From: a bacterium
Lineage (GTDB): Bacteria; Patescibacteriota; Saccharimonadia; Saccharimonadales; HK-STAS-PATE-42
Assembly: GCA_029781075.1 (NCBI GenBank)
Contig: JAKOXJ010000042.1
Span: forward strand, 1 to 30,401
Direction of reading: 5' to 3'
Length of the DNA stretch: 30,401 nucleotides
Below are positions 5,566-28,826 of this stretch, piece after piece. Positions within the stretch are counted from its first letter, which is position 1. Each line of letters begins with the position of its first letter. The position numbers were made by a program, and so were the translations under genes. The notes below the pieces were generated by a model. It saw nothing but the letters and a program-made list of their open reading frames with translations. It did no database searches and was not told the DNA's origin.

Positions 5566-5660
5566 ACATAGACGACTTATATTACATTCATAGACTATGA
5601 GGGTTATAGTGACCTTCTTTTCTTATAGTGACAAAACCGATAACTGTTAGAATACTCTAT

Positions 5661-6161
5661 ATGAAGAAGGTTACCGTAAACGATATAATGCAACAGGGCT
5701 ACACTTATGAGCTTACTGAGCCAATGGGTAAGAACTTTGATGAGAGATTTAGACCAGAACTAACTCCAAAAGAAATGCTAGAACTAGGTGTATTTGGTGG
5801 TAAGTACATGACCGATTGCCAAGATGAATTTCCTAAAGATTGGTTCGATAACGCAAAGCTCTGTCATGAATTCCATGATGCAAAGTTAAATTGCTTCGGA
5901 GTGAATGCTAGCCAGAGTTTACAGGTTTGGAGAGAAAAAGGCTGGATACATGATGATGATCCCAGGGGGTGGTTTCAATGGTACTGCAGATATTACATGG
6001 GAAGACGTCACGAAGATGATGAGAGACAGATTAAGCGCTGGATAAATATGAGAAGACACATTGCTCAGATAAAGAATGCTTGTATGCAGGGCGACTTTGA
6101 CTGCCACAGGAAGCAACGTCAGGCAGTACTTCACTGGGCTTATGACAGTAGAAAGATCTAG
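5661..6161 (+). CDS. Conserved uncharacterised Trp/Arg-rich protein, 166 aa
   Basis: TPKEMLELGVFGGKY and DPRGWFQWYCRYYMGRR...DDERQIKRW motifs; ATG 5661 is 7 nt after TG-T-TAGAAT. Confidence 0.8.
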   Translation: MKKVTVNDIMQQGYTYELTEPMGKNFDERFRPELTPKEMLELGVFGGKYMTDCQDEFPKDWFDNAKLCHEFHDAKLNCFGVNASQSLQVWREKGWIHDDDPRGWFQWYCRYYMGRRHEDDERQIKRWINMRRHIAQIKNACMQGDFDCHRKQRQAVLHWAYDSRKI

Positions 6162-6171
6162 ATATATTTTT

Positions 6172-6867
6172 TTAATTTAAATTTAGAAATTGCCTAGCAA
6201 AGACGAGACCATGGACTTCTTTAGCGCCAGCATCCTTAAGGACCTTTGCGGCAGAATTCAATGTAGATCCTGTAGTTGTGACGTCATCAATTAAAATAAT
6301 GGCATCTCCGTTTATTAGGGCTTTGCGATGAGCAATAAAGAACTTCTTAGAGGCTTCAGAGCGTTGCTGCTTAGTTGATCCAATTTGATCAAATGAGCTC
6401 GTTCTAATAAGCAAAGACTTGAATCTAAGCCCCTCTTTTTTGGCAAAACCTTTAGATATGAGATATGATTGGTCCCAGCCTCTTTTACGGGCTCTTCTTC
6501 CTGCGGTAGGGACTGGGCTAACGATAATGTTCTTTATACTTGATATTCTTGAAATTGTAGAGATTGCCGACGACATTGGCTTGGTCGCGGCGTAGGTGTT
6601 GTCAAATTTTAAAGCTTTAACTAAATCTGAACTTAAAGTATTTTTATAATCGGAATACCAAGCTATAGAATCGAGGCTCTGTTTAGGTTTGCATCTACCG
6701 CAAATACCAAGATCTTTGCATTTTTGGTTACATTTATAGCAAGTTTTGCCGGAGGATTTATCCATAACTTCTTCAAGGCATTTTTGACAACAAATGAAAC
6801 CTTCCTCATTACAGCTTAAACAGTGGTGGGGTGCTACAAAACTAAGGGCATAATCTAGGTATTTCAT
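6172..6867 (-). CDS. comF: ComF family protein (double Zn ribbon plus PRTase-like domain)
   Basis: CLSC, CQKC, CYKC, CGRC; VPVP...RKRGWDQS; LIDDVTTTGSTL PRPP-binding motif. Start set at MKYLDY (ATG 6867). Confidence 0.85.
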   Translation of the reverse strand: MKYLDYALSFVAPHHCLSCNEEGFICCQKCLEEVMDKSSGKTCYKCNQKCKDLGICGRCKPKQSLDSIAWYSDYKNTLSSDLVKALKFDNTYAATKPMSSAISTISRISSIKNIIVSPVPTAGRRARKRGWDQSYLISKGFAKKEGLRFKSLLIRTSSFDQIGSTKQQRSEASKKFFIAHRKALINGDAIILIDDVTTTGSTLNSAAKVLKDAGAKEVHGLVFARQFLNLN

Positions 6868-6996
6868 GGCAGTATTGGGGTTAAGTTTACTCGGCAATCT
6901 TGCAATAACTTCTATTGTAGGTTTAGAATGTACCTTAATACAAATTTGATTTGTGAAATAGAGAAAAACCTGGAGGGGTAGTAAACTAAAATAGCT

Positions 6997-7500
6997 ATGG
7001 CTAGAAGAAAACAATTGCCTACAAATGATGACAGCATGTTACTAGAAGATGATTTTGGGGCAGCTTTTTTGGATGAAGAAATAGTACTTGAAGGAGATCA
7101 AGAACCTACCGTAGAAGAGCCTGCAGAAGTTGAAGTGGTTGAAGAAGAAGTTGTAGAGCTTGGCGAGGAAGATGCGCAGCTCGCAGTAGATCTTTACGAA
7201 ACTGAGGAAAAACTTATTCTTAAAGCACGCGTCGCTGGAGTAGATAAGAGCGATATTGATTTAGAGCTTAACGAAGGTGTCATAACTATCAGTGGAGTTC
7301 TTAGTAGCAACGATAGCGATGAGATTACTCAGTACCATCTCCAGGAGTGCTATTGGGGCAAATTTTATCGTCAGGTAAAATTCCCTGTCCCAGTTAAAGA
7401 GGATGAGGATTCTATTGATGCGGTGCTAGATGAAGGAGTTCTAATCCTAACATTTATAAAAGAGAAAACTGACACAGCAAAGAAGATCAGAATTAGTTAG
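6997..7500 (+). CDS. Hsp20/alpha-crystallin small heat shock protein with acidic N-terminal arm
   Basis: AVDLYET...ARVAGV...ECYWGKFYRQVKFP...LDEGVLILT. Confidence 0.9.
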   Translation: MARRKQLPTNDDSMLLEDDFGAAFLDEEIVLEGDQEPTVEEPAEVEVVEEEVVELGEEDAQLAVDLYETEEKLILKARVAGVDKSDIDLELNEGVITISGVLSSNDSDEITQYHLQECYWGKFYRQVKFPVPVKEDEDSIDAVLDEGVLILTFIKEKTDTAKKIRIS

Positions 7501-7530
7501 CTAACTTAATTTAGAATCTCGTATATAAAT

Positions 7531-7551
7531 ACCTCTAAATATAGGGGTTTA
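7531..7551 (+). terminator. Possible weak terminator after Hsp20
   Basis: ACCTCTA-AATA-TAGGGGT stem with G-U pairs; short T-run. Confidence 0.3.
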
Positions 7552-7592
7552 TGTGCATTATAAATCTAATTATATGGGAGATAGGACTAGTT

Positions 7593-7922
7593 ATGAGTTT
7601 AAAACTTAAAGAAATAATAAGAAATAAAGCTAAGTGGCCAATGATAATCATGGTACTAGCATCCATACTATCGCTACCAATGTGGTTAGATGCGACCCTG
7701 GTTAGCTATAGTTACCAGACGTTTGGTGATAGAGTTGGTATATTTTATATATTAAGCCTCGTATTATCTTCGGCAGGTCTTGCCATGGAGGTTTTATTAA
7801 ACAGTAAAGAAGGACGTAGTCGATTATTAATAGTGCTATTAATAATTAACTTCTCAATTTTTATTTATAGTGGATACGTAGTATTATTCCTTGGCTTTAC
7901 GGCACGTACAAGTGGTGCTTAA
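7593..7922 (+). CDS. Hypothetical membrane protein, about 3 TM helices (alternative start 7551)
   Basis: Three hydrophobic stretches; no family recognised. Confidence 0.6.
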   Translation: MSLKLKEIIRNKAKWPMIIMVLASILSLPMWLDATLVSYSYQTFGDRVGIFYILSLVLSSAGLAMEVLLNSKEGRSRLLIVLLIINFSIFIYSGYVVLFLGFTARTSGA

Positions 7923-7928
7923 AAACTA

Positions 7929-10415
7929 TCAATCACCAATTACCTTAATAACTTCTTCTGTGTTAAGGGTTCTTTCTGGGTGATAGAAAGTTATACTAAA
8001 GGTTATCTTTTTTGGTGATTTTGGATCTTTCTGAAAAATAGAGACCGGCTTTATATAAAATTCTGCACCACTCTTATTTGTTGGTTTAGAGATTTTAGAT
8101 ACTAATTCATCTTCGACTTCTTGATACTTTTTATCGGAAGATACTTCTATAGTGACGTCTTGAGTTAGCTCCGGGAACCTATTTAGGGGTTTATAAACTG
8201 GATCTTGATTGAAGTTCTCACTCAAATACCCCAGGTCAAGCTCAAAGCCTGCAGAAGCCTCTGGAAGTTTAAAGCTTTCATATACCTGTGGTGTAAATTC
8301 GCCAATTAGTCCCCGTAGTTGACCATCGATCTCAACTCCAGCTGTTCTGCTAAACTGGAACGGTGAACAAATTGGATGTTTAGACCCGAAAATATCCTGC
8401 TTCATTTCTACTAGCCTGAACTTAGCGCCTAAAGATTTTAGAAGTTCATCTAGATATTTCTTAACTACAAAATATGGCGAACCTTCAGCCTTATCCTTAT
8501 TAGCGTATACAAAGCCAAGATGCTGGTATTCTATTGGTAACTTATCTTTTTTATCTAAGTGGTCTTTTATGTGAGATTTACCCAGCTCGTAAAGAGCAAA
8601 TTCGTCCTCCCCAGACTTAATATTCATATGGACCTTATCGAGTAGGTTGGGGACCATGCTTAGCCTGTACCTTTGCAGGTCAGGACTTAGGGCATTTCTG
8701 ATTTTGTAGGCCATTTCTGGATCCTGACCAGCTTTTCTGATTAGATTCTCGTTAACAAAATTATAAGTTAATACTTCATTAGCCCCATGTCTGGATAAGT
8801 TGTTTCGAATTGCTTTTTTTAGATTAACCATAGGGTTTTCCTGAGCTGGGGATATGCGCCTAATTGGTAACTCGGCTTCGATCTTGTTGAATCCATAAAG
8901 ACGACCGATCTCTTCGATAATATCCTCGTCAATCTCTAGGTCTGTGCGCCAGAAAGGTGGAGTAAAACAGACTTCATCAAGCATCTCGTGAGAATCAATC
9001 TCTACACTATTAAGAATCTTTGAGATCTTCTCTCGATCTAGTTCGAGGCCCAATATCTTATTAACTTTTGAGACTTCGATGTTTAAATGCCTGTACTCAA
9101 ACTTTTTATCGTTTTGGTCGAATACCTCACCATGTTTAGAGTTTGGGTTGAATTCTTTAACTAGATCCATAGCCTTTAACAGGACAACTAGCGTCTGGGC
9201 TTCTGGCTGGCCTTTTGTATAGCGAGTGACGGCATCAGTAAATACGCCAGTCTTCATCGAGGTTCTTCGGATTGAGTACATGTCAAAGCTGGCAGACTGG
9301 AGGATAATCCTCGTAGTATCATTATCTATTTCTGAGTTTGCCCCACCGTTAATCCCCGCAAGATCTATCGGGATATCATCCTTGTATATTGTTATGGCAT
9401 CCTCTGGGAGATCTATATCTTTACCCTGTAGAACTTTGAGCTTATCACCCCTGCTCGGCTTTCTTATTGTTAACTTAGCAACCGAATCATTTTGTTTTAA
9501 CTTATCAAAATCAAAAGCGTGCATTGGCTGGCCAGTCAAGATCATCATGTAGTTGGTAATATCGACTATGTTATTAATTGGACGAATCCCTAAACGAGTT
9601 AAGAAGGCTTTTAGCCACATCGGGCTTGGTGCTATCTTGATGCCTTCTATGCAGACAGCCGTGTAACGTGGGACTAGCTCAGGGATCTTATTATCGATCT
9701 CGAGCTTGAGACTAGATTCTGCTTTGGGAAACTGAGGCTCAAAGTTTTTGTACCACTCGGGTGATTTAAAGTTAATGTTTTGGATCCCAGCGATCTCACG
9801 AGCAACCCCTAAATGCCCAAAACAATCAGGGCGGTGGGTAAACATCTTATTCTCAAAATCAACAATTATGTCATCTAAATCGTAGAGATTTTTGAATGGA
9901 TTGCCTGGTTTTAGTAAAGTATCTTTTACTTCAGGAGATTCAAGCTCAATAACACCTTCATGATCGTTGGAAAGAGAGAGCTCCTTAGGTGTAGCTAGCA
10001 TGCCGCTACTTTCAACTCCCCTAAGTTTTATCTTAGAGAGGATAAAAGGTTCTTTATCATCAAAAGTTGATGGAATGGTTGCTCCCGGCGATACCCAAGC
10101 CGTAGTTAAGCCTTCTCTGGCATTTGGTCCGCCGCAGACTACCTGGACAAAACCATCTTTATCCCGATCGACTTTCTTTGCTGCACCACCATCATCGATT
10201 AGACAAATATTTAGTTTTTCGGCATCGGGATGTTTTTCTACCTTGACTATCTTTACGACATAGACTCCTTCGTAGCGAGCTCCCCAGTCGATGATCTCAT
10301 CAAAAGCTCCGATTTGAGAGTTTAGTTTTTCGGCAAGGTCATGAGCACTAAGCTTTAATATCTTAGAGATATCTACTGATGAATTTTTCTGGCCGAGTTT
10401 GAATGAGTATTTCAT
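7929..10415 (-). CDS. pheT: Phenylalanyl-tRNA synthetase beta subunit
   Basis: HPDAEKL, VCGGPN, RGVESSGML, NRPD-like HRPDC, PINNIVDITNY, GQPMHAFD, DIIEEIGRLYG, FDX-ACB-like end. Confidence 0.97.
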   Translation of the reverse strand: MKYSFKLGQKNSSVDISKILKLSAHDLAEKLNSQIGAFDEIIDWGARYEGVYVVKIVKVEKHPDAEKLNICLIDDGGAAKKVDRDKDGFVQVVCGGPNAREGLTTAWVSPGATIPSTFDDKEPFILSKIKLRGVESSGMLATPKELSLSNDHEGVIELESPEVKDTLLKPGNPFKNLYDLDDIIVDFENKMFTHRPDCFGHLGVAREIAGIQNINFKSPEWYKNFEPQFPKAESSLKLEIDNKIPELVPRYTAVCIEGIKIAPSPMWLKAFLTRLGIRPINNIVDITNYMMILTGQPMHAFDFDKLKQNDSVAKLTIRKPSRGDKLKVLQGKDIDLPEDAITIYKDDIPIDLAGINGGANSEIDNDTTRIILQSASFDMYSIRRTSMKTGVFTDAVTRYTKGQPEAQTLVVLLKAMDLVKEFNPNSKHGEVFDQNDKKFEYRHLNIEVSKVNKILGLELDREKISKILNSVEIDSHEMLDEVCFTPPFWRTDLEIDEDIIEEIGRLYGFNKIEAELPIRRISPAQENPMVNLKKAIRNNLSRHGANEVLTYNFVNENLIRKAGQDPEMAYKIRNALSPDLQRYRLSMVPNLLDKVHMNIKSGEDEFALYELGKSHIKDHLDKKDKLPIEYQHLGFVYANKDKAEGSPYFVVKKYLDELLKSLGAKFRLVEMKQDIFGSKHPICSPFQFSRTAGVEIDGQLRGLIGEFTPQVYESFKLPEASAGFELDLGYLSENFNQDPVYKPLNRFPELTQDVTIEVSSDKKYQEVEDELVSKISKPTNKSGAEFYIKPVSIFQKDPKSPKKITFSITFYHPERTLNTEEVIKVIGD

Positions 10416-10424
10416 ATCTTTATA

Positions 10425-11453
10425 TTAAAACTGCTTTAAAAACTTAAGTTTGGCAGAGTGGAATAAGCGGACATCTTCAACACCGTATTTCATCATAATT
10501 AGTCTCTCTATTCCACAACCAAAAGCAAAACCTGAGTACTTTTTAGAGTCGATGCCAGCCATTTCTAGAACGTTGGGATGTATCATTCCGCAGCCTAAAA
10601 GCTCGATCCAGCCAGACTGTGAACAGATATGACAGCCTTTCTTATCACAGAACGGGCAAGAAAGGGCGAATTCGAAACTAGGTTCTGTGAACGGAAAATA
10701 AAATGGATTGATTCGTGTTTCGACTTCTTTACCGTAATAAGCAGAAAGGAATGTTTTAAGGGTTGCAATGAGATTTCCAACATTAACATCTTTATCAACA
10801 TATACCCCCTCTAGTTGATGAAAGGTGTGCTCATGACGAGCATCAACATCCTCGTTTCTATAGACCCTATCTGGTACGACACCAGCAATTGGGCGACCTT
10901 CTTCTAGATCTGACTTTCTAAGGCTTAGTATTCTACTTTGCATCGTTGAGGTGTGTGCGGGCGCTACAAGTTCTTCTTCCGTTACGAAAGTATCGTAGTC
11001 ATCTCGTGCAGGGTGATCTTCTGGGAAGTTAAGAGATGTGAACATGTGCCAAGCATCATCTAGATTCCTAGATTCGAAGATCTCAAAACCAATTGAATTG
11101 AATATCTCAGATACCTTTTCTATCTCCTGAGAAATTGGATGAATACTACCATTCTGGGCTGGTAAAAGTGATGGTTCTTTGGCATTAATATCAAAGGGTG
11201 CTGTAAGATCGATCGGTCTCAAATCTTCGACTTTTTTTTCATTATCGTCTTTCAGCCAAGATTCAACTTCTTTTTTTAGATCGTTTATAGCCAGACCCAG
11301 CTCTCTCTTCTGTTCTGCAGGAACTTTAGGAAGTAGTGCGTAAAGTTTCTTGAGATGATCGGATTTAAGAATACGAGTTTTATCGTCTAAGTTTTTAAAC
11401 TCAGCCGCAAGTTCTTTTTTGGCCGCTTCGACCTGGCTATTCCAGTCTGACAT
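10425..11453 (-). CDS. pheS: Phenylalanyl-tRNA synthetase alpha subunit
   Basis: HPARDDYDTF, HTSTMQ, FHQLEG, YFPFTEPS, GCGMIHPNVL, GFAFGCGIER. Confidence 0.98.
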   Translation of the reverse strand: MSDWNSQVEAAKKELAAEFKNLDDKTRILKSDHLKKLYALLPKVPAEQKRELGLAINDLKKEVESWLKDDNEKKVEDLRPIDLTAPFDINAKEPSLLPAQNGSIHPISQEIEKVSEIFNSIGFEIFESRNLDDAWHMFTSLNFPEDHPARDDYDTFVTEEELVAPAHTSTMQSRILSLRKSDLEEGRPIAGVVPDRVYRNEDVDARHEHTFHQLEGVYVDKDVNVGNLIATLKTFLSAYYGKEVETRINPFYFPFTEPSFEFALSCPFCDKKGCHICSQSGWIELLGCGMIHPNVLEMAGIDSKKYSGFAFGCGIERLIMMKYGVEDVRLFHSAKLKFLKQF

Positions 11454-11517
11454 TTTTTATTGGTATACAGTTAATTTTAACACTTAGAGCTCCATTTTGT
11501 GCTAGAATTAACTGCAT

Positions 11518-11787
11518 ATGGAAAATGCATTCAACATCTTAGTCATTATTCTAAGTATCTTCTTAGCAATCTTTTTAATCCTTTGGATTATTGTTTTAAT
11601 CTATGCTTGGAAGATAGCTCGGGCAGCTAGAAGAATAACTGATAAAACAGAAACTGCAGTTAATGATGCCGGCACACTTATCAGCAACGCAAAGGATGCA
11701 GTTGCACCAGCAGTTGCTGCTAAAGTTTTGACTAAGGCAATTAAGAACTTTACTAATAAGAGCAAGGTAAAAGTTAAGAAGAAGTAA
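11518..11787 (+). CDS. Hypothetical single-pass membrane protein, 89 aa
   Basis: N-terminal TM helix, amphipathic tail, Lys-rich end; TG-C-TAGAAT 9 nt upstream. Confidence 0.75.
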   Translation: MENAFNILVIILSIFLAIFLILWIIVLIYAWKIARAARRITDKTETAVNDAGTLISNAKDAVAPAVAAKVLTKAIKNFTNKSKVKVKKK

Positions 11788-11788
11788 C

Positions 11789-12061
11789 TTGAGCACCCCA
11801 AGATCCCTTGAAGCCACAATAGATAGGCAGGTAGAAGCACTCTGCATCGCAGAAAAAGCCGGAAAATTAGCTGCCACAATGTTTAATGTACCTGGCGGAC
11901 ACGTAAAAATGCCGGACATTAAAGAACAATATGATTCTCTAATACTAGAGATGAGTGGCTTACCTTTAGATGAAGAGACCAGAAGAGGCGTCTGGGAGCG
12001 CTATGCAAATGTATTTGTCCAAAATAGTATGACATGCGCACCGAGTTATCCTATTGTTTAG
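11789..12061 (+). CDS. Hypothetical protein, 90 aa
   Basis: TTG start 1 nt after the previous stop; no family recognised. Confidence 0.5.
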   Translation: MSTPRSLEATIDRQVEALCIAEKAGKLAATMFNVPGGHVKMPDIKEQYDSLILEMSGLPLDEETRRGVWERYANVFVQNSMTCAPSYPIV

Positions 12062-12075
12062 GAGGGCATACTTTT

Positions 12076-12360
12076 TTATTTTTTTCCTTTCTTTTGTATC
12101 TTGTAGTGTTGCTGGATGAAGAGAAGTTCATCAATAATATCTTGAAGATGGCGGACTTGGAGTTCATCACCTTTTTTTAATTGATCGCTTAACTTATCTA
12201 GTCTAGTTGCTAAAGTTGTAAAGTATTGCCCAGATCGAATTAGCACATCCGTCTCACTCAAATCAGTGAATCTGGCTATATCAGCCAAGAATAACTCGTT
12301 AGTCAGCATAGAATATGTGTCTTTTTCTTTAGTATCACGCATAGATTTTATTCTCTTCAT
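12076..12360 (-). CDS. Hypothetical helical protein, 94 aa, downstream of radC
   Basis: ATG 12360 lies 4 nt after the radC stop; GQYFTTLATRLD...LQDIIDELLFIQQHYKI. Confidence 0.7.
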   Translation of the reverse strand: MKRIKSMRDTKEKDTYSMLTNELFLADIARFTDLSETDVLIRSGQYFTTLATRLDKLSDQLKKGDELQVRHLQDIIDELLFIQQHYKIQKKGKK

Positions 12361-12364
12361 ATTT

Positions 12365-13117
12365 TTATTCTTGAATGAAATTAAGTACACTAGTATAACT
12401 TTTTGATGTAATTATCAGATGATCTAAGAGCTCTACGCCCAAAACATTGCCCGCCTCAACAAGCTGCCTAGTTGTATTAATGTCCGCTTCAGTTGGCTCA
12501 AGACTACCCGATGGGTGATTATGGGCAATGAGCACTGCAATTGCTCCCTGTTCTATGGCGGGCTGGAAGACCTCTCTAGGGTGCACTATATTAGAAGTTA
12601 GGCTACCAACCGAAATAATTTCATCATGAATTATCTGGTACCTACTATTTAAATAAAGTGCACGAAGTTGTTCTTTTTTGCCATACGATATTACCTTTAA
12701 GTGTTCATAGGCTTGCTGTGATGTCTTAATATATGCAGGCTTACCATACTTTTCACTAAAGAACCTTCTACCAATCTCTAGGGCTGCAATTATTTGTGAA
12801 GCCTTACCAACAGGTATATCAACAAGTTCTGCAAACTTTTTTGGACTCAACTCGCTAGTAAGAGCTTTTTCGCCATACTCGCGTAGTATTCTTTGGGCCA
12901 TAGACATTACTTCTTCTTTACGTGTACCTGTACCCAATAAAATTGCGACTAACTCGGCAATGGTTAGGGACTTTGCACCAAGCATATACATCTTCTCTCG
13001 AGGCTTTTGCTCTGTTGGAAGATCCTTAACTTTGATGGTATAGCGACCTGAAGGTATATCACTGTGTGCAAGAGTGATATCATGGTCCGCAAGTCTATAG
13101 GAGTCTGTTTGAGTCAC
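12365..13117 (-). CDS. radC: RadC family JAB/MPN-domain protein
   Basis: KPREKM, ELVAILLGTG, VHPREVF, AHNHPSGSLEPTEAD, LLDHLII. Confidence 0.95.
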   Translation of the reverse strand: MTQTDSYRLADHDITLAHSDIPSGRYTIKVKDLPTEQKPREKMYMLGAKSLTIAELVAILLGTGTRKEEVMSMAQRILREYGEKALTSELSPKKFAELVDIPVGKASQIIAALEIGRRFFSEKYGKPAYIKTSQQAYEHLKVISYGKKEQLRALYLNSRYQIIHDEIISVGSLTSNIVHPREVFQPAIEQGAIAVLIAHNHPSGSLEPTEADINTTRQLVEAGNVLGVELLDHLIITSKSYTSVLNFIQE

Positions 13118-13208
13118 TTAATACCGACTTTCTGGCGTTTAGTTATTTTAACTTAGCGGCCTTAAAAGTTTGTGTGGCTCAATATGCTAAAATAGAGTGT
13201 AATATTTT

Positions 13209-13913
13209 ATGTCGGGACATAGCAAGTGGGCGACAATAAAGCGCCAAAAAGATGTTAAGGACTCCAAACGTGGAGCCCTGTTTACACGTATTGGTAACCA
13301 AATTGCCATGGCAGCTCGTTCTGGGACTGATCCAGCAACAAACCCTAGTCTAGCTGCAGTAATTGAGAAGGCTAAGTCTGCCAACATGCCAATGAGTAAC
13401 ATCGAACGAGCAATTAAACGAGTAGCTGATAAAGATGCCGCTCAACTGGAGGAAGTCTTGTACGAAGGTTACGGGCCAGCTGGAGTAGCCGTTATGGTTG
13501 AGTGTGCAACAGATAATAAGAACAGGACTTACCCGGAAGTTAAGCATGCTTTTTCTAAGTTTGGTGGTAATATCGCTGAAGGTGGAGCAGTCGCCTTTCA
13601 ATTTGAGAGGCAAGGAGTTATTGTGGTTAAAGCCTCTGGAGAAGACGCGCTTCTAGAGGTTTTAGAAGCTGGAGCGAATGATGCCAGTGAAGAAGAAGAT
13701 ATTATTGTTGCTTACACCGACCCAAAAGATCTTCACAGTGTTAAAGCAAAGCTGAATGAATCTGGTTTAGAAACTGAAAGTGCCGAACTTAGCTGGCAGC
13801 CTAAGAATACTGTGCCTATGGACGAAGAAGCTCAGACTAAACTAGAAAAGATCATTGATGCTCTTGAAGATCTACAGGACGTTGTAAATGTCAGTCATAA
13901 TGGCGGTGATTAG
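13209..13913 (+). CDS. yebC: YebC/PmpR family protein
   Basis: MSGHSKWATIKRQK, YEGYGPAG, TDNKNRT, EDLQDVVNVSHN. Confidence 0.97.
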   Translation: MSGHSKWATIKRQKDVKDSKRGALFTRIGNQIAMAARSGTDPATNPSLAAVIEKAKSANMPMSNIERAIKRVADKDAAQLEEVLYEGYGPAGVAVMVECATDNKNRTYPEVKHAFSKFGGNIAEGGAVAFQFERQGVIVVKASGEDALLEVLEAGANDASEEEDIIVAYTDPKDLHSVKAKLNESGLETESAELSWQPKNTVPMDEEAQTKLEKIIDALEDLQDVVNVSHNGGD

Positions 13914-14874
13914 AAAGCTCACTCTTAACCTCTTCTACTGTTTTACAATTCATCAATTTTACTCTTAGGTCTGATGCGCCATCGAAGTCTCGAATGTATA
14001 CCTTAAAGAAGCGTTTGAGGGGATCAAACTTCTTTTGGGGGTTTAACCTGACTTCTTCTTCGAAAAGGTCTAGGTGACAATTTAGGAGTTCCAGTAGCTC
14101 TTTTTTTGATTCTGGTAGCGATAAATCTAGGGGATCTTCTCTAAAGCATGTAATGTTTTGGAATATTCCTCGACCGATCATTACCCCATCCAGATTGTGC
14201 TTTTTAACTAATTCTTCACCATGCTTACGAGTCATGATGTCACCGTTACCAATAATTAGAGTCCTTGGAGCGACCTTATCTCTTAATTTAACTATGTCAG
14301 AAAAAAGCTCATGGTGGGCCGGAACTTTGGACATCTCCTTTTTGGTCCGGGCATGGATTGTTAGAGCGTCGATGTTTTGTCTTAAGAGATGAGTAATCCA
14401 CCCTTCCCATTCATCAACTTTAGAGTAGCCCAAACGAGTCTTAACGGAAACAGGTAGCCCACCGGCCTTGGCTGCCTGGATCATCTCTGCAGCGAGTTCA
14501 GGATGGAGTATCATCGCCGAACCAGAGGCATGCTTGGTGGCAGTTTTAACAGGGCAACCCATATTAAGATCAATCCCATCAAAGCCCATCTTTTTTAAAG
14601 CTTTTGACATCTTTTCGAGATTATCTGGGTTAGATCCCCAAACTTGTGCAATCAGAGGCTTTTCTGACCTTGTAAAAGAGAGTCTTCGACCAACCACTTT
14701 TTTCCCCTCAGAGTTCCAGCCTTCGACATTTGTAAACTCGGTGAAGAATAGATCTGGACGTCCGGCCTTAATAACAACTCTTCTGAAGACCGTATCTGTT
14801 ACGGCCTCCATTGGTGCAAGCACAAAAAGTGGCTTTGGCAACTTCTGCCATACTATTTTCCTATTAAATATCAT
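13891..14874 (-). CDS. tRNA-dihydrouridine synthase (DusB/DusC family)
   Basis: LAPMEAVTD, GIDLNMGCP, PVSVKTRLG, LTIHART, GNGDI, GVMIGRG. Confidence 0.95.
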   Translation of the reverse strand: MIFNRKIVWQKLPKPLFVLAPMEAVTDTVFRRVVIKAGRPDLFFTEFTNVEGWNSEGKKVVGRRLSFTRSEKPLIAQVWGSNPDNLEKMSKALKKMGFDGIDLNMGCPVKTATKHASGSAMILHPELAAEMIQAAKAGGLPVSVKTRLGYSKVDEWEGWITHLLRQNIDALTIHARTKKEMSKVPAHHELFSDIVKLRDKVAPRTLIIGNGDIMTRKHGEELVKKHNLDGVMIGRGIFQNITCFREDPLDLSLPESKKELLELLNCHLDLFEEEVRLNPQKKFDPLKRFFKVYIRDFDGASDLRVKLMNCKTVEEVKSELSNHRHYD

Positions 14875-14932
14875 TACTATTGATTATACCAGGGAAGATG
14901 ATGCGAATGTGTTAGAATTAGCATAAACATTT

Positions 14933-15949: not shown

Positions 15950-16000
15950 CAACACCTGATTATTTAGTAGCCCACTAAGTGTTATGCTTAGTGTTAAGTT

Positions 16001-16897: not shown

Positions 16898-16922
16898 CTT
16901 AAGTTTGTTATAATTAAGATAA

Positions 16923-18926: not shown

Positions 18927-18948
18927 CAATCTGTATAATTATTGATTA

Positions 18949-21125: not shown

Positions 21126-21142
21126 CAACTAAAAATTATAGA

Positions 21143-21934
21143 CTACTCCTCTAGGCTAATTAGAAGGCTGAGCAGGCCCTGCCAATTACCAAGTGAGAGT
21201 TGTTCTGCCCTAACTTCTGGATCTAGTGTCAGTGGGGAAAGCAGCTTTGTGACCTCTTGCTTAGTTTTATGTAAACCAGCTGCCAGGTTATTTATTAAAG
21301 TTTTTCTTGGTGAAGAAAAAGCAAACTTAACAAGCTGAGAATATTCTTTAAAGTTTAAATTTGAGAAGAGAGGTTCTTCTCTTTTATCGAGAATGATGAC
21401 CTGGGAATTAACTTTAGGAGGCGGGTTGAATGACTTTGGTGACACTTTAATGCCAAGTTCTGTGGAATAGTAATATGCAGCAAGCATAGCTAGTTTATTA
21501 CTGTCTCCTTTTTCTGGAGATTGGACAATCTTCTCAGCGACTTCTTGTTGAACCAATACGACTGCTCTCTTTGGCTTATTGTTAGTTTCTATAATTATTC
21601 TAAAAAAGATACCAGAAATATAATAAGGAAGATTAGTCACCAATTTGTAGTCTTTAGGTAGTTCTTCAAAGTTAAACTTGCGGATATCAGAATTCTGAAC
21701 TTTCAAGTTACTTTTGCCTGGAAAACTCTTTGGAAGATTCTCAGCCAAAGTTTCGTCATACTCAACCGCTAAAACTTCTGCACCTGATTTAAGAAGTCTT
21801 GAAGTGAGCGTCCCTAGCCCAGGCCCGACCTCTACTATAAAATCGTCTTTATTGAGCTCAGCGTAGTCTGTAATAGTCTGTAATATCAGAGGATCCTGTA
21901 GCCAGTGCTGACCAAGCTTCTTATTTGCTGGCAT
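21143..21934 (-). CDS. rsmA: 16S rRNA m6,2A dimethyltransferase
   Basis: KKLGQHWL, VEVGPGLGTLT, NLPYYIS, SFNPPPKVNS, VRAEQLS. Confidence 0.96.
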   Translation of the reverse strand: MPANKKLGQHWLQDPLILQTITDYAELNKDDFIVEVGPGLGTLTSRLLKSGAEVLAVEYDETLAENLPKSFPGKSNLKVQNSDIRKFNFEELPKDYKLVTNLPYYISGIFFRIIIETNNKPKRAVVLVQQEVAEKIVQSPEKGDSNKLAMLAAYYYSTELGIKVSPKSFNPPPKVNSQVIILDKREEPLFSNLNFKEYSQLVKFAFSSPRKTLINNLAAGLHKTKQEVTKLLSPLTLDPEVRAEQLSLGNWQGLLSLLISLEE

Positions 21935-22781
21935 TTAAACTTTCTAATATCTTAATTCTTTCTTCTATTGGAGGATGAGTAGAGAAGAGTCGGCTGACCT
22001 TATTCGACTTTAGTGGGTTGGCAATAAATAGATGAGCTGTTGAGGTAGAGGGTCTACTTAAAGTTGACTTACCACTTATCTTTCTAAGAGCGCTAGCCAG
22101 ATCTTTTGGCTTATGAGTAATCTCTGCACCAGACAGATCGGCTGCATATTCTCGCTGGCGAGATACAGCAGCCTGGACTAAGAATCCTATAAGAGAAGAT
22201 ATCATAGAGATGACTATATAGCTCAAGAAACCTCCCCTGTCTTCGTCTCCAAAGAGAATCGTTCTTAAGAAGAAATCGATAATCAGATTTAGTGAAGTTA
22301 TACAGGCAAATACAATCATCATTAACCTAATATCATAATTCTTAACATGCGATATCTCGTGTGACAGAACCGCCCTAAGCTCATCCTCATTGAGAACTTC
22401 TAGTATTCCAGCTGTAACCGCAACGTGGGCGTTCTCTGGAGACCTTCCTGTGGCGAATGCGTTTGCTCCTTTGTCTGGAACGACGTAAAGCCTTGGCATT
22501 GGTAGGCCTGCATCTTTGGTAAGATCACTTACTATTCTGTATATATCTGGGGCATCTTTTTTGGTGATTGGTTTTGCACGATTTACTTTTAGTGCGATAC
22601 TGGCTGCAGAGAAGTAACTTATAATAGAATAAACTAGCCCAAAAACAACTGAGAAAATAATTGCCGTATTATTTCCAGTAAATTGATAATACAGCCAGCC
22701 TAAGAAGGCTGTGAATAATAATAGACAGAGAATAATAAAGTTGGACTTTAGCTTATTTCTTGTTGCGGAATGTGTATGCAT
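21921..22781 (-). CDS. htpX: M48 family zinc metalloprotease HtpX
   Basis: NAFATGRSP, AVLSHEISH (HExxH), SRQREYAAD, FSTHPPIEERI. Confidence 0.95.
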   Translation of the reverse strand: MHTHSATRNKLKSNFIILCLLLFTAFLGWLYYQFTGNNTAIIFSVVFGLVYSIISYFSAASIALKVNRAKPITKKDAPDIYRIVSDLTKDAGLPMPRLYVVPDKGANAFATGRSPENAHVAVTAGILEVLNEDELRAVLSHEISHVKNYDIRLMMIVFACITSLNLIIDFFLRTILFGDEDRGGFLSYIVISMISSLIGFLVQAAVSRQREYAADLSGAEITHKPKDLASALRKISGKSTLSRPSTSTAHLFIANPLKSNKVSRLFSTHPPIEERIKILESLNASK

Positions 22782-22803
22782 ACATCCCAGATTATATCAG
22801 TTA

Positions 22804-23220
22804 TCAGCTTGAGGCACTCTTTTTGGTGAATTCAGCTTCTTTTTCTAGGTTAACCTTGATCTCGTAGGATTTACATAGGCCATTTGAGCAATCCGCTGGA
22901 TAGTATCTGTACTCAGCATTTGGCTGGCCTAGTATTACTCCCTTAGTATCAACAAGTGCCTCGGGATCTATGCCATTTAAGTTACCCTGAGTTATTGTCT
23001 CTGGATACAAGTTATCCTTTTTACTAGCTTCTAGGGAAAAGTAAATCGCGCTAATGTCCCTTTTTCTTTGGACATCACGCGCATCTGCAGCATTTTGTCT
23101 TAGAAGATAGGAAAATAGAATACCAAGTACAGAAAATATAACTAGAACGACCAGTAGTTCTAGCGCTGTGTAGCCGAAGTTATCAAGTTTTTTAAGTTTC
23201 ATATTACTTAAGTTTATCAT
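22804..23220 (-). CDS. Type IV pilin / pseudopilin-like protein (alternative start 23202)
   Basis: Class III signal G-YTALELLVVLVI, RD-QRKRDI, one Cys pair near the C-terminus. Confidence 0.85.
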   Translation of the reverse strand: MINLSNMKLKKLDNFGYTALELLVVLVIFSVLGILFSYLLRQNAADARDVQRKRDISAIYFSLEASKKDNLYPETITQGNLNGIDPEALVDTKGVILGQPNAEYRYYPADCSNGLCKSYEIKVNLEKEAEFTKKSASS

Positions 23221-23270
23221 AACTTATATTATGATCTTTATCATAAAATATGATACAATTTAACAGTGAT

Positions 23271-23345
23271 GCGGGTGTGGTATAATGGCTATTATTCCTG
23301 CCTTCCAAGCAGGCGATGAGAGTTCGATTCTCTCCACCCGCACCA
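23271..23345 (+). tRNA. tRNA-Gly, anticodon TCC
   Basis: Acceptor GCGGGTG/CACCCGC, anticodon arm CCTGC-CTTCCAA-GCAGG, T arm GAGAG-TTCGATT-CTCTC, CCA; TG-A-TACAAT at 23251-23259. Confidence 0.97.
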
Positions 23346-23362
23346 AGCCTAATCTTATATAT

Positions 23363-23388
23363 GACTCTTCTATGTAGGAGTCTTTTTT
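23363..23388 (+). terminator. Intrinsic terminator after tRNA-Gly
   Basis: GACTCTT-CTATGT-AGGAGTC stem followed by TTTTTT. Confidence 0.7.
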
Positions 23389-23535
23389 ATTTATCTGATT
23401 TGTTCTTTTGAGATCTCTGGTCAATAACACTCTTTGCAACAAGTAAAGATAGGATGCTTGCTGATCTTTTTGCTTTCAGTTTCATGATTTATGTATAGAT
23501 TTAGTCAATTAATAATACTAAATGATACACTTAGC

Positions 23536-24312
23536 TTAATGGCCGAGCTTATCCAGAGCTTCTCCTGCCGCAGCCTGCTGAGCTGTTTGTTTGCTGTGAC
23601 CAGTTCCCTTACCATAGATCTTACCCTTTATATAAGCACCAAGGGTGAAGGATTTATCATGGTCGGGACCAGATTCTTCTAGAACTCTATAGACTGGGGG
23701 TACACCAAACCTTGACTGGGCAAGCTCCTGAAGGATAGACTTTGGATCTCGCCAACTTTCAGTCTCTATCATTGTGCTAGTTTTTGTTAATAGGTTGTCT
23801 GCAATGAATTTTTCTGCAACATCAAAACCGAACTCGAGATAGAGTGCTCCAACGAATGCCTCAAAAGTATTAGCTAGAATTTGTAAACGAGACCTTTCTA
23901 GGTTTAGCTTCTCCCCCTTACTTAAGCGAAGAAATCTATCCATTTCTAATGAATCTGCTACGGCGCCAATGCTTTCTGTCCTAACTAGTGCGGACCTCCA
24001 GGCAGTTAGAACCCCTTCCGGCTCGTCTGGATACTCAGCATAGAGATATCTAGTGACTGCAAGTTCTAGAACTGCGTCGCCTAAGAATTCTAGGCGCTCA
24101 TTATTCTTGAACTTAGACTTTTTGTGCTCATTGACATAGCTCCTGTGGGTGAATGCATTTAGAAGGAGTCCTAGATTAGAGAATTCTTTAGAGATAACCT
24201 CTGCTGAGAAAGTCTGATATGGAGTCATGTCAACTCCCTGAAAGAATATTCCTGGGTTTTTGGCCTCTTGAGGCGTTTCTTGAGGCTTTGGTTTTAAACT
24301 TTGACGTGGCAT
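23536..24312 (-). CDS. rnc: Ribonuclease III
   Basis: AFTHRSY, NNERLEFLGDAVL, ANTFEAFVGALYL, dsRBD with GPDHDK. Confidence 0.97.
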   Translation of the reverse strand: MPRQSLKPKPQETPQEAKNPGIFFQGVDMTPYQTFSAEVISKEFSNLGLLLNAFTHRSYVNEHKKSKFKNNERLEFLGDAVLELAVTRYLYAEYPDEPEGVLTAWRSALVRTESIGAVADSLEMDRFLRLSKGEKLNLERSRLQILANTFEAFVGALYLEFGFDVAEKFIADNLLTKTSTMIETESWRDPKSILQELAQSRFGVPPVYRVLEESGPDHDKSFTLGAYIKGKIYGKGTGHSKQTAQQAAAGEALDKLGH

Positions 24313-24329
24313 ATTTTAGTTTATTACTC

Positions 24330-24950
24330 TTAAGCAGATATTTTAGCACCCGGGGTTCTTTCTCTTATCTTACGAAGACCTACGAGCATTAATGTCTCAA
24401 TTGCTTCATACTGTATCAGGTCTAGAGCGGTAGAGAATTCGAACCACCCGATACTTTTCATCCAAGGATCTACAGTGCGAATGGCAGAAGTATCTCCTCG
24501 TGCCTCTATTAAGAAGATGTGCATGGTCATGAGTACTAAAGTGTTTTGACGTCTATATTGGAATGTTGATTTACCTAAGTGCTCATAGACTTTCATCTCC
24601 TGGAGGTCAGTCTCTTCGCGAACTTCTCTTTCTGCAGTCTGGCTAGTAACTTCTCCAGGCTCTACATGACCTTTTGGAATTGTCCAGCGATCACGAGAGT
24701 CTTGGGCTAATAAAATCTCTATTACACCGGCTTTATTGATTCTGTAAACGACTCCTCCTGCTGTAACTTCTTTTACGGCTTCTTTTATAAGAGGTCTTTT
24801 GACGATACGTCCAAAGCTTTTGAGAGGTGAGCCGGACTTATTGTTCTTCAAGTCTCCCTGGTAGCTGTTTTCTTGAGAAGAATTAACACTACTCTTAGGG
24901 TGATCTTTGCCCCTTGGAGATTTATTATTGTCCTTTTCTTGTTCTGACAT
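24330..24950 (-). CDS. NUDIX hydrolase with low-complexity N-terminal extension
   Basis: AGGVVYR, WTIPKGHVEPGE...AEREVREETDL. Confidence 0.88.
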   Translation of the reverse strand: MSEQEKDNNKSPRGKDHPKSSVNSSQENSYQGDLKNNKSGSPLKSFGRIVKRPLIKEAVKEVTAGGVVYRINKAGVIEILLAQDSRDRWTIPKGHVEPGEVTSQTAEREVREETDLQEMKVYEHLGKSTFQYRRQNTLVLMTMHIFLIEARGDTSAIRTVDPWMKSIGWFEFSTALDLIQYEAIETLMLVGLRKIRERTPGAKISA

Positions 24951-24956
24951 TACTTT

Positions 24957-25409
24957 TTATTTTTTAGCTTTAATTTCTTGAGTGAATAAACTCTTATATA
25001 CACTACCTAGTACACCGTTTATGAACTTAGCCGCATTATCACCGCCAAATTGCTTAGCTAGTTCAACGGCCTCGTCTATTGCCACCTTATAGGGAACGTC
25101 CTGATATGGGAACTTAAGCTCGTAGACCGCAAGCCTAATGATTGATACTTCTACCATCGGTATCTGATCGAGTGGCCAGTTGGTTGCAAATGGCAACCAT
25201 AACTTATCTAGCTCCTCTTGCTTATCTACAACTCCCTTTATTACAGCTCTTACAAAATCCGTATCCTGGATGTTATCTTTATGGACGGAAAGGGCCCTAG
25301 CAGAGATATCTTCAATGGCAAGGTTAGGATCTTTAAGACTACTCCGAACGAAGTACTCGTAAAGAGCCTGCATTGCTACGATTCTGCCAAGGTGCCGGTT
25401 TGCCGCCAT
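24957..25409 (-). CDS. nusB: Transcription antitermination factor NusB
   Basis: RIVAMQALY, IIRLAVYE, VAIDEAVELAKQFG, KFINGVLG. Confidence 0.96.
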   Translation of the reverse strand: MAANRHLGRIVAMQALYEYFVRSSLKDPNLAIEDISARALSVHKDNIQDTDFVRAVIKGVVDKQEELDKLWLPFATNWPLDQIPMVEVSIIRLAVYELKFPYQDVPYKVAIDEAVELAKQFGGDNAAKFINGVLGSVYKSLFTQEIKAKK

Positions 25410-25475
25410 ACTGTCCTAATTCTACCCTATCTTCTAGGATAATTGAAGCTGAGATTTACTAAACTTATTGTGCTA

Positions 25476-25652
25476 CTATTTCTTAGCTTTAACTTGAGAA
25501 GTGAGTCTTTTGCCACTTTCTCTTTTTGTTGTAAAAGCTTTAACTGGACTCTTGCTGTTTACGGCCCTAGCTAGAGTTAAACGGAGATGAGATCGCCTTA
25601 AGCCGGTTTTTCTGTGTGAGGTTCGCCTCTTTGGTACTGTATTCTTTGCCAT
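25476..25652 (-). CDS. rpmF: 50S ribosomal protein L32 (bL32), cysteine-free form
   Basis: Missed by the ORF track. Manual translation: MAKNTVPKRRTSHRKTGLRRSHLRLTLARAVNSKSPVKAFTTKRESGKRLTSQVKAKK; VPKRRTS...RRSH motif; directly upstream of nusB. Confidence 0.9.
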   Translation of the reverse strand: MAKNTVPKRRTSHRKTGLRRSHLRLTLARAVNSKSPVKAFTTKRESGKRLTSQVKAKK

Positions 25653-25729
25653 TTTAGTTTAAATAAGTTTATTGGTTCAGACCTATATTGTATATTAACA
25701 GAGCCAGAAAGTCTATATTTGTAATAGTT

Positions 25730-26611: not shown

Positions 26612-26626
26612 TTAAGACAAATTTTA

Positions 26627-28120
26627 TCATAATGCCCTGTTGCTGTTTCTTGATAACCTATTTCTTGAGATCTTGATAAAAATACCGATGAGCAGATAGC
26701 AACTTATCATCCCAGGCTGGCTAAGCTTTAGCTGGACAGAAGCCCAGGGTAGGCTAGATAGCCTTTGGATTACTAAGATTATTGGGGTTAGAACTATTTT
26801 TGGAGTCTGGTAGAAAAGCCTTGCTATAACTGAATTAAGATTTAACATACCGAAAATTCCTACTACTAGGACTAGGAGCATCACGAATGGTATCCATGGT
26901 ACAACTAATATATTTGCGACTAGTGAGATTACGGAGAAAGTTCCAAAGATATGAGCTATAAGTGGAGCTGTCATAATTTGAGCGCATAGAGATTCAATGA
27001 AAACTGAAGCCAACAAGCCGGGTTCCTGGTTAGTGCCAGAATAGAACAAATTAGTTACAGTTGGAGCGAGTACTAGTACTCCAAAAAATGCCAGAAAGCT
27101 TAGCCACCAACCTATGTCCTCTAGAAGGTAGGTTGGATTTACGGCAGATGTTATAAACGCTGATAATAATATAAGGTTTATCGGCGATATTTTTCTGCCA
27201 TAGTAAGAGCAGATTATTGATATAAGGCATACAACAGCGGCCCTAACTACACTGGGAGAGAAACCCGTTACCAGTAAAAATAAGAATATTAGACTAAGTG
27301 ATACAATGGTTTGCTGGTATTTAGATAGTTTCTTACCCAACCGGCCAATAGCAAGGACTATAATGGTAAGGTTGTACCCACTAACAGCAATTATATGAGT
27401 CAGCCCAACGCGAGATAGCTGATCCTGAAGATCCTTGGGTATTGACGATCTCACTCCCGCCAGGAATCCTATCCCTAATGAAGCGTGAGGTTCAGGTAGA
27501 GAGGAGTAGATGGAAGAGAAGAACCTTAGACGATACCTCTCTAACTGTGAGGAGTTTTGCTGAAGGATTTCTACGCTAGAATAGGATATCGACCCCGTCC
27601 TGGCTCCTAAAGCTGGTTTAATCGTGCCATTTACATAGATTTTATAGCCCCGATAGACTGCTATATTTTGTTTTGTCCTAACTCTTATCCTTCCGGGAAG
27701 ATATTCTCCACTTTTTGCGAAGTTGACTCTGGTAATATTGAACTCATAGTCTCCATAGTCATTATAGGCAGCATCGTCCTGAACTACGCCCACCAAACTA
27801 ACTTCTTTGCCAAAGAGCTGACCATAGACTTTTAAGCTATTCTGAAAATTTGAAGAACTAACATACAGAGTTAAGCAGCAAATAATTAAGAGGAGTGCCC
27901 TCCCCAGTATTGGCTTTTTTATAAAAATGAATATTGAGATTACTAACAGTAGGGACAGCAAATAATTTGGTATAAGTATCGGTGAGCTCAGAGCTAATAT
28001 CTTACCTAAGAAGATAGAGATTATGCCTGATAGACACAGCAGAGCTATAAAATCTGACTGGTTTTTGAATGGTTTGAATCTGTGAGCGGACGATGAGGAT
28101 CTGTCGGAAGATTTGGGCAT
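26627..28120 (-). CDS. comEC: ComEC/Rec2 DNA uptake channel (no metallo-beta-lactamase domain)
   Basis: GLTHIIAVSGYN, SPSVVRA, GWWLSFLAFFG, SLVANILV; OB-like DUF4131 region; 497 aa. Confidence 0.93.
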   Translation of the reverse strand: MPKSSDRSSSSAHRFKPFKNQSDFIALLCLSGIISIFLGKILALSSPILIPNYLLSLLLVISIFIFIKKPILGRALLLIICCLTLYVSSSNFQNSLKVYGQLFGKEVSLVGVVQDDAAYNDYGDYEFNITRVNFAKSGEYLPGRIRVRTKQNIAVYRGYKIYVNGTIKPALGARTGSISYSSVEILQQNSSQLERYRLRFFSSIYSSLPEPHASLGIGFLAGVRSSIPKDLQDQLSRVGLTHIIAVSGYNLTIIVLAIGRLGKKLSKYQQTIVSLSLIFLFLLVTGFSPSVVRAAVVCLISIICSYYGRKISPINLILLSAFITSAVNPTYLLEDIGWWLSFLAFFGVLVLAPTVTNLFYSGTNQEPGLLASVFIESLCAQIMTAPLIAHIFGTFSVISLVANILVVPWIPFVMLLVLVVGIFGMLNLNSVIARLFYQTPKIVLTPIILVIQRLSSLPWASVQLKLSQPGMISCYLLIGIFIKISRNRLSRNSNRAL

Positions 28121-28193
28121 GGTTATTCGGCAATAAAGGTATTGAGTCTAAACCCTAACTTTAGACTACTTAGCTGATAGAATAAAGACTATC

Positions 28194-28826
28194 ATGGGCT
28201 CCAAGTATAAATCAGTAAGAAAATCCTACGGTCAGCAAGACTTTAGTAGTGAGCTGGCAGATTGGCTGAAATCTGATAATACTAAAACGCTTTTGGAGCT
28301 TGATAAGTTTTTTGGCGACAGGACCTTTGCAATTCTCTTTATGTTTTTAATGGCAGCGAGTGCTTTACCAATACCGACAGGTGGAGTGACTGATGTCTTC
28401 GCAGTTATCACCATACTCTTTGCCCTGCAAATGGTTTTGGGCAGGAGAGATCTGTGGCTACCGAAAAGATGGCAGAGAATGAAGCTAGGGAGCGTGTTTA
28501 CCATGAAGCTTCTACCGGGCTTGGTAAAGTTGATCCGGTGGTTAGAGAGATTTTCTAAACCAAGATTATCCTGGATTCTTAGAGGTAAGACTTCTGATGT
28601 TATTTTGGGCTTATCTGTTGCAATACTGGCCACTGCTACTATTGCTGCGCCTCCATTTTCTGGGCTTGACACAATTCCGGCGCTTGGGATCGTAATAATA
28701 TCAGCAGGCATGATCCTGAAAGATGGAGTAATGACTTTAGTAGGCTGGTGTCTTGGGGCTAGTGGGATCTTGATCCAACTCCTCTTGGGCAAGGCTGTAC
28801 TCGAGGTCATTCAACGGATTATTTAG
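28194..28826 (+). CDS. exoD: ExoD family membrane protein
   Basis: LPIP-GG, QMVLGRR-LWLP, RWLERFSKPRL, PPFSGLDTIPALG. Confidence 0.85.
   Translation: MGSKYKSVRKSYGQQDFSSELADWLKSDNTKTLLELDKFFGDRTFAILFMFLMAASALPIPTGGVTDVFAVITILFALQMVLGRRDLWLPKRWQRMKLGSVFTMKLLPGLVKLIRWLERFSKPRLSWILRGKTSDVILGLSVAILATATIAAPPFSGLDTIPALGIVIISAGMILKDGVMTLVGWCLGASGILIQLLLGKAVLEVIQRII

Follow-up and report, generated by a model that had tools for sequence, protein, structure and literature searches.

Extended -10 boxes next to start codons suggest leaderless or nearly leaderless mRNAs in a Saccharibacteria genome

Start-proximal boxes in the window

The 30,401-nt contig JAKOXJ010000042.1 (assembly GCA_029781075.1), referred to in its whole length as the window, comes from a bacterium of the order Saccharimonadales and carries, at many of its genes, a hexamer resembling a -10 promoter element only 7-10 nt before the start codon. 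The genome under study (G000) is a metagenome-assembled genome (MAG) of 563 kb in 101 contigs, with 74% completeness and 41% GC, and the window is its contig C36. Genetic code 11 fits this genome. The window's LigA has its best identities, up to 62-63%, to proteins of Candidatus Saccharibacteria/Saccharimonadales MAGs, and the DNA runs containing the window are anaerobic digester and activated-sludge metagenomes. The identities of the Hsp20-like, DusB, LigA, NUDIX, MsbA-like ABC, HtpX, NusB, ExoD, YebC, and PheS proteins are supported by family searches, in which the profile N-termini lie within a few residues of the chosen ATG of these genes.

The initial annotation listed 11 boxes with gaps of 7-10 nt between hexamer and ATG, and five further boxes with longer gaps. 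All 16 are present in the sequence with the gaps that it gave (Table 1). Its comF gene is not the minus-strand open reading frame (ORF) 12368-13117. This ORF encodes a RadC-like JAB-domain protein (PF04002 plus a UPF0758 N-terminal domain), starts with GTG, and lacks a box within 25 nt of that start. The comF gene is the minus-strand ORF with ATG 6867.

Table 1. Boxes upstream of protein-coding and tRNA genes in the window. Gaps are counted from the hexamer to the ATG or to the mature tRNA 5' end.
Element	Position	Strand	Gap (nt)	Downstream start	Gene and context
Extended -10 TGTTAGAAT	5645..5653	+	7	ATG 5661	Hypothetical protein, no family match
-10 box TAAACT, no TG	6979..6987	+	9	ATG 6997	Hsp20-like
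Extended -10 TGCTAGAAT	11500..11508	+	9	ATG 11518	Hypothetical protein, 89 aa
Extended -10 TGGTATAAT	14883..14891	-	8	ATG 14874	DusB
Extended -10 TGTTATAAT	16906..16914	+	8	ATG 16923	LigA; within 25-nt intergenic spacer
-10 box TATAAT	18934..18939	+	9	ATG 18949	NUDIX; within 22-nt spacer past ligA
-10 box TATAAT	21135..21140	-	9	ATG 21125	MsbA-like ABC exporter; adjoins stop codon of upstream gene
Extended -10 TGATATAAT	22791..22799	-	9	ATG 22781	HtpX; within 22-nt spacer
-10 box TAGAAT	25419..25424	-	9	ATG 25409	NusB
Extended -10 TGATAAAAT	26621..26629	-	9	ATG 26611	Hypothetical protein; overlaps end of upstream gene
Extended -10 TGATAGAAT	28175..28183	+	10	ATG 28194	ExoD family
Extended -10 TGTTAGAAT, short-leader class	14910..14918	+	14	ATG 14933	Divergent from dus promoter
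Extended -10 TGCTAAAAT, short-leader class	13185..13193	+	15	ATG 13209	YebC
Extended -10 TGTTAAAAT, short-leader class	11474..11482	-	20	ATG 11453	PheS
Longer-gap box			12		Gene 16001
Longer-gap box		-	16	ATG 6867	comF
Extended -10 TGATACAAT	23251..23259	+	11	23271	tRNA-Gly
-10 box TATAAT	5193..5198	+	16	5215	tRNA-Ser

Boxes are enriched at a fixed distance from start codons

Genes of G000 were called with a simple codon-usage caller, which gave 529 genes; the upstream regions were anchored on the first ATG, and 469 genes were scored. The strict box TA[TAG]AAT lies 7-10 nt before the first ATG in 75 of the 469 genes, whereas shuffling the proximal 30 nt of each gene, as an AT-matched background, gives 10.3±3.2 (z ~20). 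The looser TAnnnT at the same gaps was found 145 times versus 70.6±7.4 in shuffles (z ~10). Along the upstream region, the strict box forms a sharp peak at gaps 7-10, which sum to 16% of genes versus ~2% at control offsets; elsewhere upstream it occurs at ~0.5% per position, and before internal in-frame ATGs at ~0.1% per position. A histogram of this kind against an AT-matched background had been proposed as a check by the initial annotation, and the enrichment sits at the spacing that it described. Counting TATAAT-N7-10-ATG without any annotation yielded 88 occurrences versus ~28 expected from other gaps, with 19, 23, 26, and 20 at gaps 7, 8, 9, and 10, respectively, and ~7 per gap elsewhere. 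The same pipeline detected no box peak in 186 genes from loci of other phyla (1.6% versus 1.2%), which have a clear Shine-Dalgarno (SD) signal.

We then scored the genes with a position weight matrix (PWM) built on the 11-nt motif, using cut-offs of at least 8 bits for the 469-gene count and at least 9 bits within 189 nt upstream. At the lower cut-off, 65 of the 469 genes (14%) have a box at gap 6-11, versus 1.5% at control offsets. At the higher one, 57 genes have a box at this distance compared with 3.4 expected from gaps 31-100 (Poisson p ~1e-48). The excess of TAnnnT suggests that the class comprises 17-20% of genes. Strong boxes of at least 9 bits precede 141 genes within 189 nt, 57 of them (40%) at the leaderless distance of 6-11 nt and 82 at 12-189 nt; in G003, a congener, 45 of 98 strong-box genes (46%) have the box at the leaderless distance. 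Hence, genes of the leaderless type make up about 13-20% of all genes and ~40% of the recognisable strong promoters. An SD 4-mer at 4-13 nt is present in ~15% of genes, and ~70% have neither box nor SD. In light of these numbers, the widespread boxes proposed by the initial annotation stand as a genome-wide peak, yet one confined to about 13-20% of genes. Its view of gene-by-gene expression was overstated given the SD-led genes and the majority with neither signal, and leadered units are not a small class, with 82 of the 141 strong-box genes having the box at 12-189 nt.

The strict box occurs in 24% of divergently oriented genes, in 20% of genes located 26-60 nt past a same-strand neighbour, in 12% of those no more than 25 nt from such a neighbour, and in 10% of those with longer spacers. 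Among same-strand genes whose upstream neighbour is within 25 nt, 14 of 119 have a box of their own, versus 1-2 at control offsets, and some of these boxes overlap or abut the end of the upstream gene (ABC, 26611). The earlier statement that genes inside apparent operons can have their own boxes is thus borne out. The window contains three divergent pairs with spacers of 58-73 nt (14875-14932, 11454-11517, and 28121-28193). The dus/14933 and pheS/11518 spacers, which are the first two, each have two back-to-back boxes, one per strand, and the third has a box on the exoD side only.

Boxes are retained among relatives

The window boxes were compared with those of three congeners (G003, G002, and G004) and one genome of the same family. 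G003 is a complete 692-kb genome of the same genus, and its first 400 kb, used for peak and tRNA counts, display the same peak (12% versus 1.9%). The reciprocal-best orthologues of G000 and G003 have a median protein identity of 79%. For strict-box genes with N-termini in register, TAnnnT at gap 6-11 is kept in 18 of 22 G003 orthologues, compared with 31 of 96 when the gene lacks a box (Fisher p = 3e-5), and the upstream sequence around the boxes cannot be aligned.

The boxes of dus, ABC, htpX, nusB, exoD, ligA, yebC, and 14933 are each retained in two to four relatives, with gaps that shift by 1-3 nt for most and from 8 to 14 nt for ligA. Specifically, dus has TGTTATAAT at gaps of 8, 8, and 10 nt in G003, G002, and G004, respectively, between unalignable flanks. 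In the same three genomes, ABC has TATAAT at gaps of 7, 9, and 9 nt, htpX has TGATATAAT at gaps of 8, 7, and 7 nt, and the yebC gaps are 15, 16, and 11 nt. The nusB gene is preceded by TAGAAT at gap 10 in G003 and by TAAACT at gap 12 in G004; exoD and 14933 of G003 have TGCTAGAAT at gap 11 and TGCTAAAAT at gap 14, respectively. Before ligA, the congeners carry TGCTAAACT at gap 8-12, and G005 carries TGTTAAACT at gap 14. This tolerance of the gap among relatives suggests that transcripts need not begin exactly at the A of AUG. A mobile repeat carrying the recurrent CTCTGTTATAAT was rejected by eye, with the flanks of the copies inspected sharing nothing past the motif, although no repeat search was made.

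In samples from four other families of the order, the box peak is weaker, at 4-10% of genes, and SD motifs are more frequent, at 13-25%. As a crude annotation-free index, we compared TATAAT-N7-10-ATG with the reversed pattern in 120 Patescibacteria genomes. The index is 88/41 for G000, and the ratios in five genomes from its order are 2.2, 3.8, 1.1, 1.9, and 2.0; beyond the order it is patchy, with about 15-20 genomes at 2 or above and about half near or below 1. In more distant Saccharibacteria (L001-L038), ligA directly follows the conserved C-terminus of the upstream gene, within which GGGAG or AGGAG lies 6-8 nt before the ligA start. The genus of G000 has a 25-nt spacer with an extended -10 box instead of this SD-type arrangement, and hence the signal type of ligA has changed within the class. 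The 37 Saccharibacteria ligA loci were rejected as a pooled lineage sample because they are orthologous regions and not independent.

The motif is that of an extended -10 promoter

When the boxes are aligned on the hexamer, position -2 before it is G in 56%, and positions -3 and -5 are T in 55% and 54%, respectively. The consensus is TnTGnTAnAAT, the extended -10 or TRTG-like element as defined in PMC12641261. The -35 region of the boxes is flat in composition. TTG[AT] at a spacer of 16-18 nt accompanies 10 of 85 boxes versus 1-3 at control offsets, and TTGAC is found in five. With TG at ~56% and 88% of the 85 boxes lacking TTG[AT] at 16-18 nt, the initial annotation was right to describe extended -10 boxes mostly without -35.

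Our tRNA survey covered 33 tRNA genes of G000 and 24 in the first 400 kb of G003. Most of these genes, and nearly all of the stand-alone ones, carry TGnTAnAAT, mostly 10-17 nt before the mature 5' end; two examples are in the window (Table 1). As untranslated tRNA genes carry the same motif, it is a promoter element and not a translation signal. None of the stand-alone tRNA genes has a gap below 9-10 nt, a minimum that fits starts 7-9 nt after the hexamer. The 5' leaders predicted for these pre-tRNAs are only ~3-10 nt. Judged by their sequence, the boxes are extended -10 promoters.

G000 encodes one RpoD/SigA-like sigma factor, which is closest to Firmicute SigA structures. The initial annotation suggested a look at its regions 3 and 4. 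In region 3.0 (RIPVHMFENINKL), alignment to the SigA structures demonstrates that the His and Glu of the PVHM-x-E motif are kept; from H455/E458 of E. coli sigma-70, we take these two to be the TG-contacting residues. Region 4.2 is canonical (TRERIRQIEAKAL). The absence of -35 elements is thus not explained by a lost sigma region 4 and is a property of the promoters rather than of a degenerate sigma.

Start codons, leader length, and the Shine-Dalgarno system

For nine of the 11 window genes with boxes at gaps 7-10, the ATG is the first possible start, having an in-frame stop 0-15 nt upstream; over all such box genes the in-frame stop is 0-42 nt upstream. Those ORFs therefore cannot start further upstream. 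Gene 5661 has an in-frame GTG 33 nt upstream as an alternative start. ATG is the start codon of 64 of 65 box genes, under a start rule that itself preferred ATG.

Across 49 bacteria, transcription starts are centred 7 bp after the -10 element (PMC12641261), and mRNAs are usually defined as leaderless if transcription starts within 5 bp of the start codon (PMC3898074). Assuming a start ~7 nt past the hexamer, gaps of 7-10 nt would give leaders of ~1-4 nt, or of 0 nt if transcription starts at the T(-1)/A(+1) pyrimidine-purine step, hence the estimate of 0-4 nt. The modal gap is 8-9 nt in G000 and 7-8 nt in G003, and 6-8 nt in the group C genomes of PMC6028130. Box genes favour A at -2, and the triplet most often found before their ATG is TAT, which makes a two-base leader as plausible as none.

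A box 7-10 nt from the ATG leaves no space for an SD. The anti-SD itself is intact in the relatives. The 3' end of 16S rRNA is ...ACCTCCTTTCT, which contains the anti-SD, in nine relatives including G003 of the same genus; the inspection that the initial annotation had called for was run on relatives, as the MAG holds no 16S gene of its own. About 13-15% of genes have an SD 4-mer within a peak at gaps 7-11. Thus, SD-led initiation is still available and serves a minority of genes. In the window, rpsJ, tuf, and fusA (600-5057) are without a start-proximal box and have purine-rich SD-like stretches near their starts. The upstream region of hsp20, which is almost identical in G003, has a GGAGG ~20 nt before the ATG (window 6965-6996), beyond SD range. 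The motif is kept in G003 and G004 (AGGAGG ~23 nt upstream) and may be a regulatory element or part of an upstream signal.

Ribosomal protein bS1 is present in all five Saccharimonadales genomes searched (G000:C66:1678-2712, L136; G003, G005, G008, and G011), which led us to reject its loss as a driver of leaderless translation. The protein is short (about 355-379 aa); its match covers positions 4-350 of 516 in the rpsA profile and scores below the family cut-off.

Across the genome, positions -14 to -2 upstream of genes are rich in A and poor in C. A T immediately precedes the start codon in 57-59% of the called genes of G000 and G003 (e.g., window 16922, 14875, and 11517), at an equal rate in the box, SD, and neither classes, compared with 34-49% in other Saccharimonadales samples and 36% in the loci of other phyla. 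U at -1 can extend the pairing with initiator tRNA, and T at -1 is possibly a translation-initiation context.

Leaderless or nearly leaderless expression is the probable explanation

We consider it likely that the boxes are the -10 elements of housekeeping (SigA/RpoD-type) extended -10 promoters and that the mRNAs of box genes are leaderless or nearly so. The motif, its spacing, enrichment, and conservation, the promoter identity, and the canonical sigma residues are observed; from them we infer the exact transcription start and the mode of translation. In the proposed mechanism, SigA/RpoD-type promoters with the consensus TnTGnTAnAAT would be mostly active without -35, and in about 13-20% of genes the first ATG would follow their box after 6-11 nt (mode 8-9). 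RNA polymerase, starting ~7 nt past the hexamer, would initiate at the A of ATG or 1-4 nt upstream. The resulting mRNAs, without room for an SD, would be translated in the leaderless way, by direct binding of the ribosome and initiator tRNA to a 5'-terminal AUG. This class would coexist with an SD-led minority and a majority having neither signal.

Several points weigh against this explanation. Window transcripts (5001-25000) were sought in four metatranscriptomes, three from the source study and one with RNA of a relative, and only tRNA-like scraps from other organisms were found. The modal gap is 1-3 nt longer than in group C genomes, and many mRNAs may carry 1-3 nt ahead of the AUG rather than being leaderless in the strict sense. 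The gene starts come from our own crude caller and not from a validated annotation, on a MAG that is about three quarters complete. Furthermore, for boxes within packed rows of genes, upstream read-through could supply most of the mRNA.

The last point leads to the strongest alternative, which we regard as unlikely: the boxes are active, but in the same-strand rows (ligA, NUDIX, ABC, htpX, and 26611) most mRNA is read through from upstream, leaderless transcripts being a minor or conditional supplement. The spacers of 22-25 nt are too short for a terminator, boxes in tight same-strand pairs are half as frequent (12%) as in divergent genes (24%), and the ~70% of genes without a start-proximal signal fit polycistronic expression. 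However, the ABC and htpX boxes are kept at the same distance in three congeners despite overlapping or abutting the end of the upstream gene, and the enrichment in tight pairs is still about 7-14 fold over control offsets.

It is far less probable that the A/T-rich motif is a non-SD ribosome-binding or translation-enhancer element on leadered mRNAs, similar to that of the GeneMarkS-2 'group B'. The motif does sit at the distance of a ribosome-binding site, A is frequent and C scarce upstream of all genes, and bS1 has been retained. Nevertheless, TGnTAnAAT also precedes the untranslated tRNA genes and matches the sigma-70 extended -10 consensus base for base, TG included. It is also commoner before first genes than before internal genes, and other genes carry it 12-189 nt upstream of their starts.

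A by-product of AT-rich intergenic DNA, stop codons, or wrong start codons, which a GC content of 41% and a TAnnnT background of ~4% per position upstream might invite, was tested and can be dismissed, given the z of ~20 against AT-matched shuffles, the confinement of the peak to gaps 7-10, its recurrence in the annotation-free count, its lack in genes of other phyla, and boxes kept between species while their flanks diverge.

Implications

Beyond the promoters of G000, we entertain a broader proposal, though with more doubt than belief. Saccharibacteria and a patchy set of other Patescibacteria families might be a large, hitherto undescribed leaderless-mRNA lineage with a geometry of its own, in which the default promoter would be TnTGnTAnAAT without -35, placed 8-9 nt and not 6-7 nt from the ATG. 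Either the polymerase would start unusually far from the -10, or mini-leaders of 1-3 nt, often A-U before AUG, would be the norm. If so, this geometry and the U at -1 in ~58% of genes would point to a start-site context for SD-independent initiation throughout the genome.

Both the leaderless mechanism and the signature that it leaves in genomes are well established (PMC6028130, PMC3898074, PMC3160421), as in Actinobacteria and Deinococcus, and no concept is changed here. Our full-text searches found no paper linking leaderless mRNAs with Saccharibacteria, Patescibacteria, or the Candidate Phyla Radiation, and hence no published description for the Saccharibacteria lineage; the main text of PMC6028130 mentions neither Saccharibacteria nor Patescibacteria. 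The observations matter for gene finding, as these organisms are known almost exclusively from metagenomes and start calls depend on the initiation signals of the lineage. The new genetic tools for Saccharibacteria rely on borrowed tuf and rpsJ promoters (PMC10633639); TGnTATAAT plus 8 nt plus ATG, ~20 nt in all, could give them a minimal, testable expression signal. The ~70% of genes with neither signal raise the question of how most proteins of reduced genomes are initiated. Cultured Saccharibacteria have Actinobacteria as hosts, the phylum classically known to be rich in leaderless mRNAs, which may be a coincidence.

Comparison with known systems

Group C genomes are mainly Actinobacteria and Deinococcus-Thermus, with a Pribnow box ~10 nt from first-gene starts, an estimated 25-50% of operons leaderless, and coexisting SD-led genes (PMC6028130). 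Similarly, about 40-46% of the recognisable strong promoters here are at the leaderless distance, a share within that range, and SD-led genes coexist; the group C features found for G000 are the start-proximal box peak, the SD genes, and, in relatives, the anti-SD. Different from group C, the lineage is Saccharibacteria/Patescibacteria, the modal spacing is 8-9 nt instead of 6-8 nt, and the genome is AT-rich and very small.

M. tuberculosis has TANNNT -10 elements without a recognisable -35, and about a quarter of its genes with a primary start are leaderless, its translation-apparatus genes not being among them (PMC3898074). Like these, tuf, fusA, and rpsJ of the window are without a start-proximal box. 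The two systems differ in the TGn extension, which accompanies only 7% of the TANNNT motifs in M. tuberculosis (PMC3898074) and ~56% of the boxes here, and in that start sites were mapped there and are deduced from sequence here.

The only Saccharibacteria promoter data that we found are those of Nanosynbacter lyticus TM7x, for which 188 start sites were inferred from RNA-seq coverage and the distance to the -10 is unusually variable (PMC12641261); that paper is silent on leaderless mRNAs. The promoter itself is like the extended -10 (TG/TRTG) promoters of Firmicutes and E. coli, with TG one base before the hexamer, T two bases further upstream, a largely dispensable -35, and the His and Glu of sigma region 3.0 kept. 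Unlike in those promoters, the base between the T and the TG is not restricted to purines (often TCTG), and the extended -10 class here appears to be the default promoter type, placed beside start codons.

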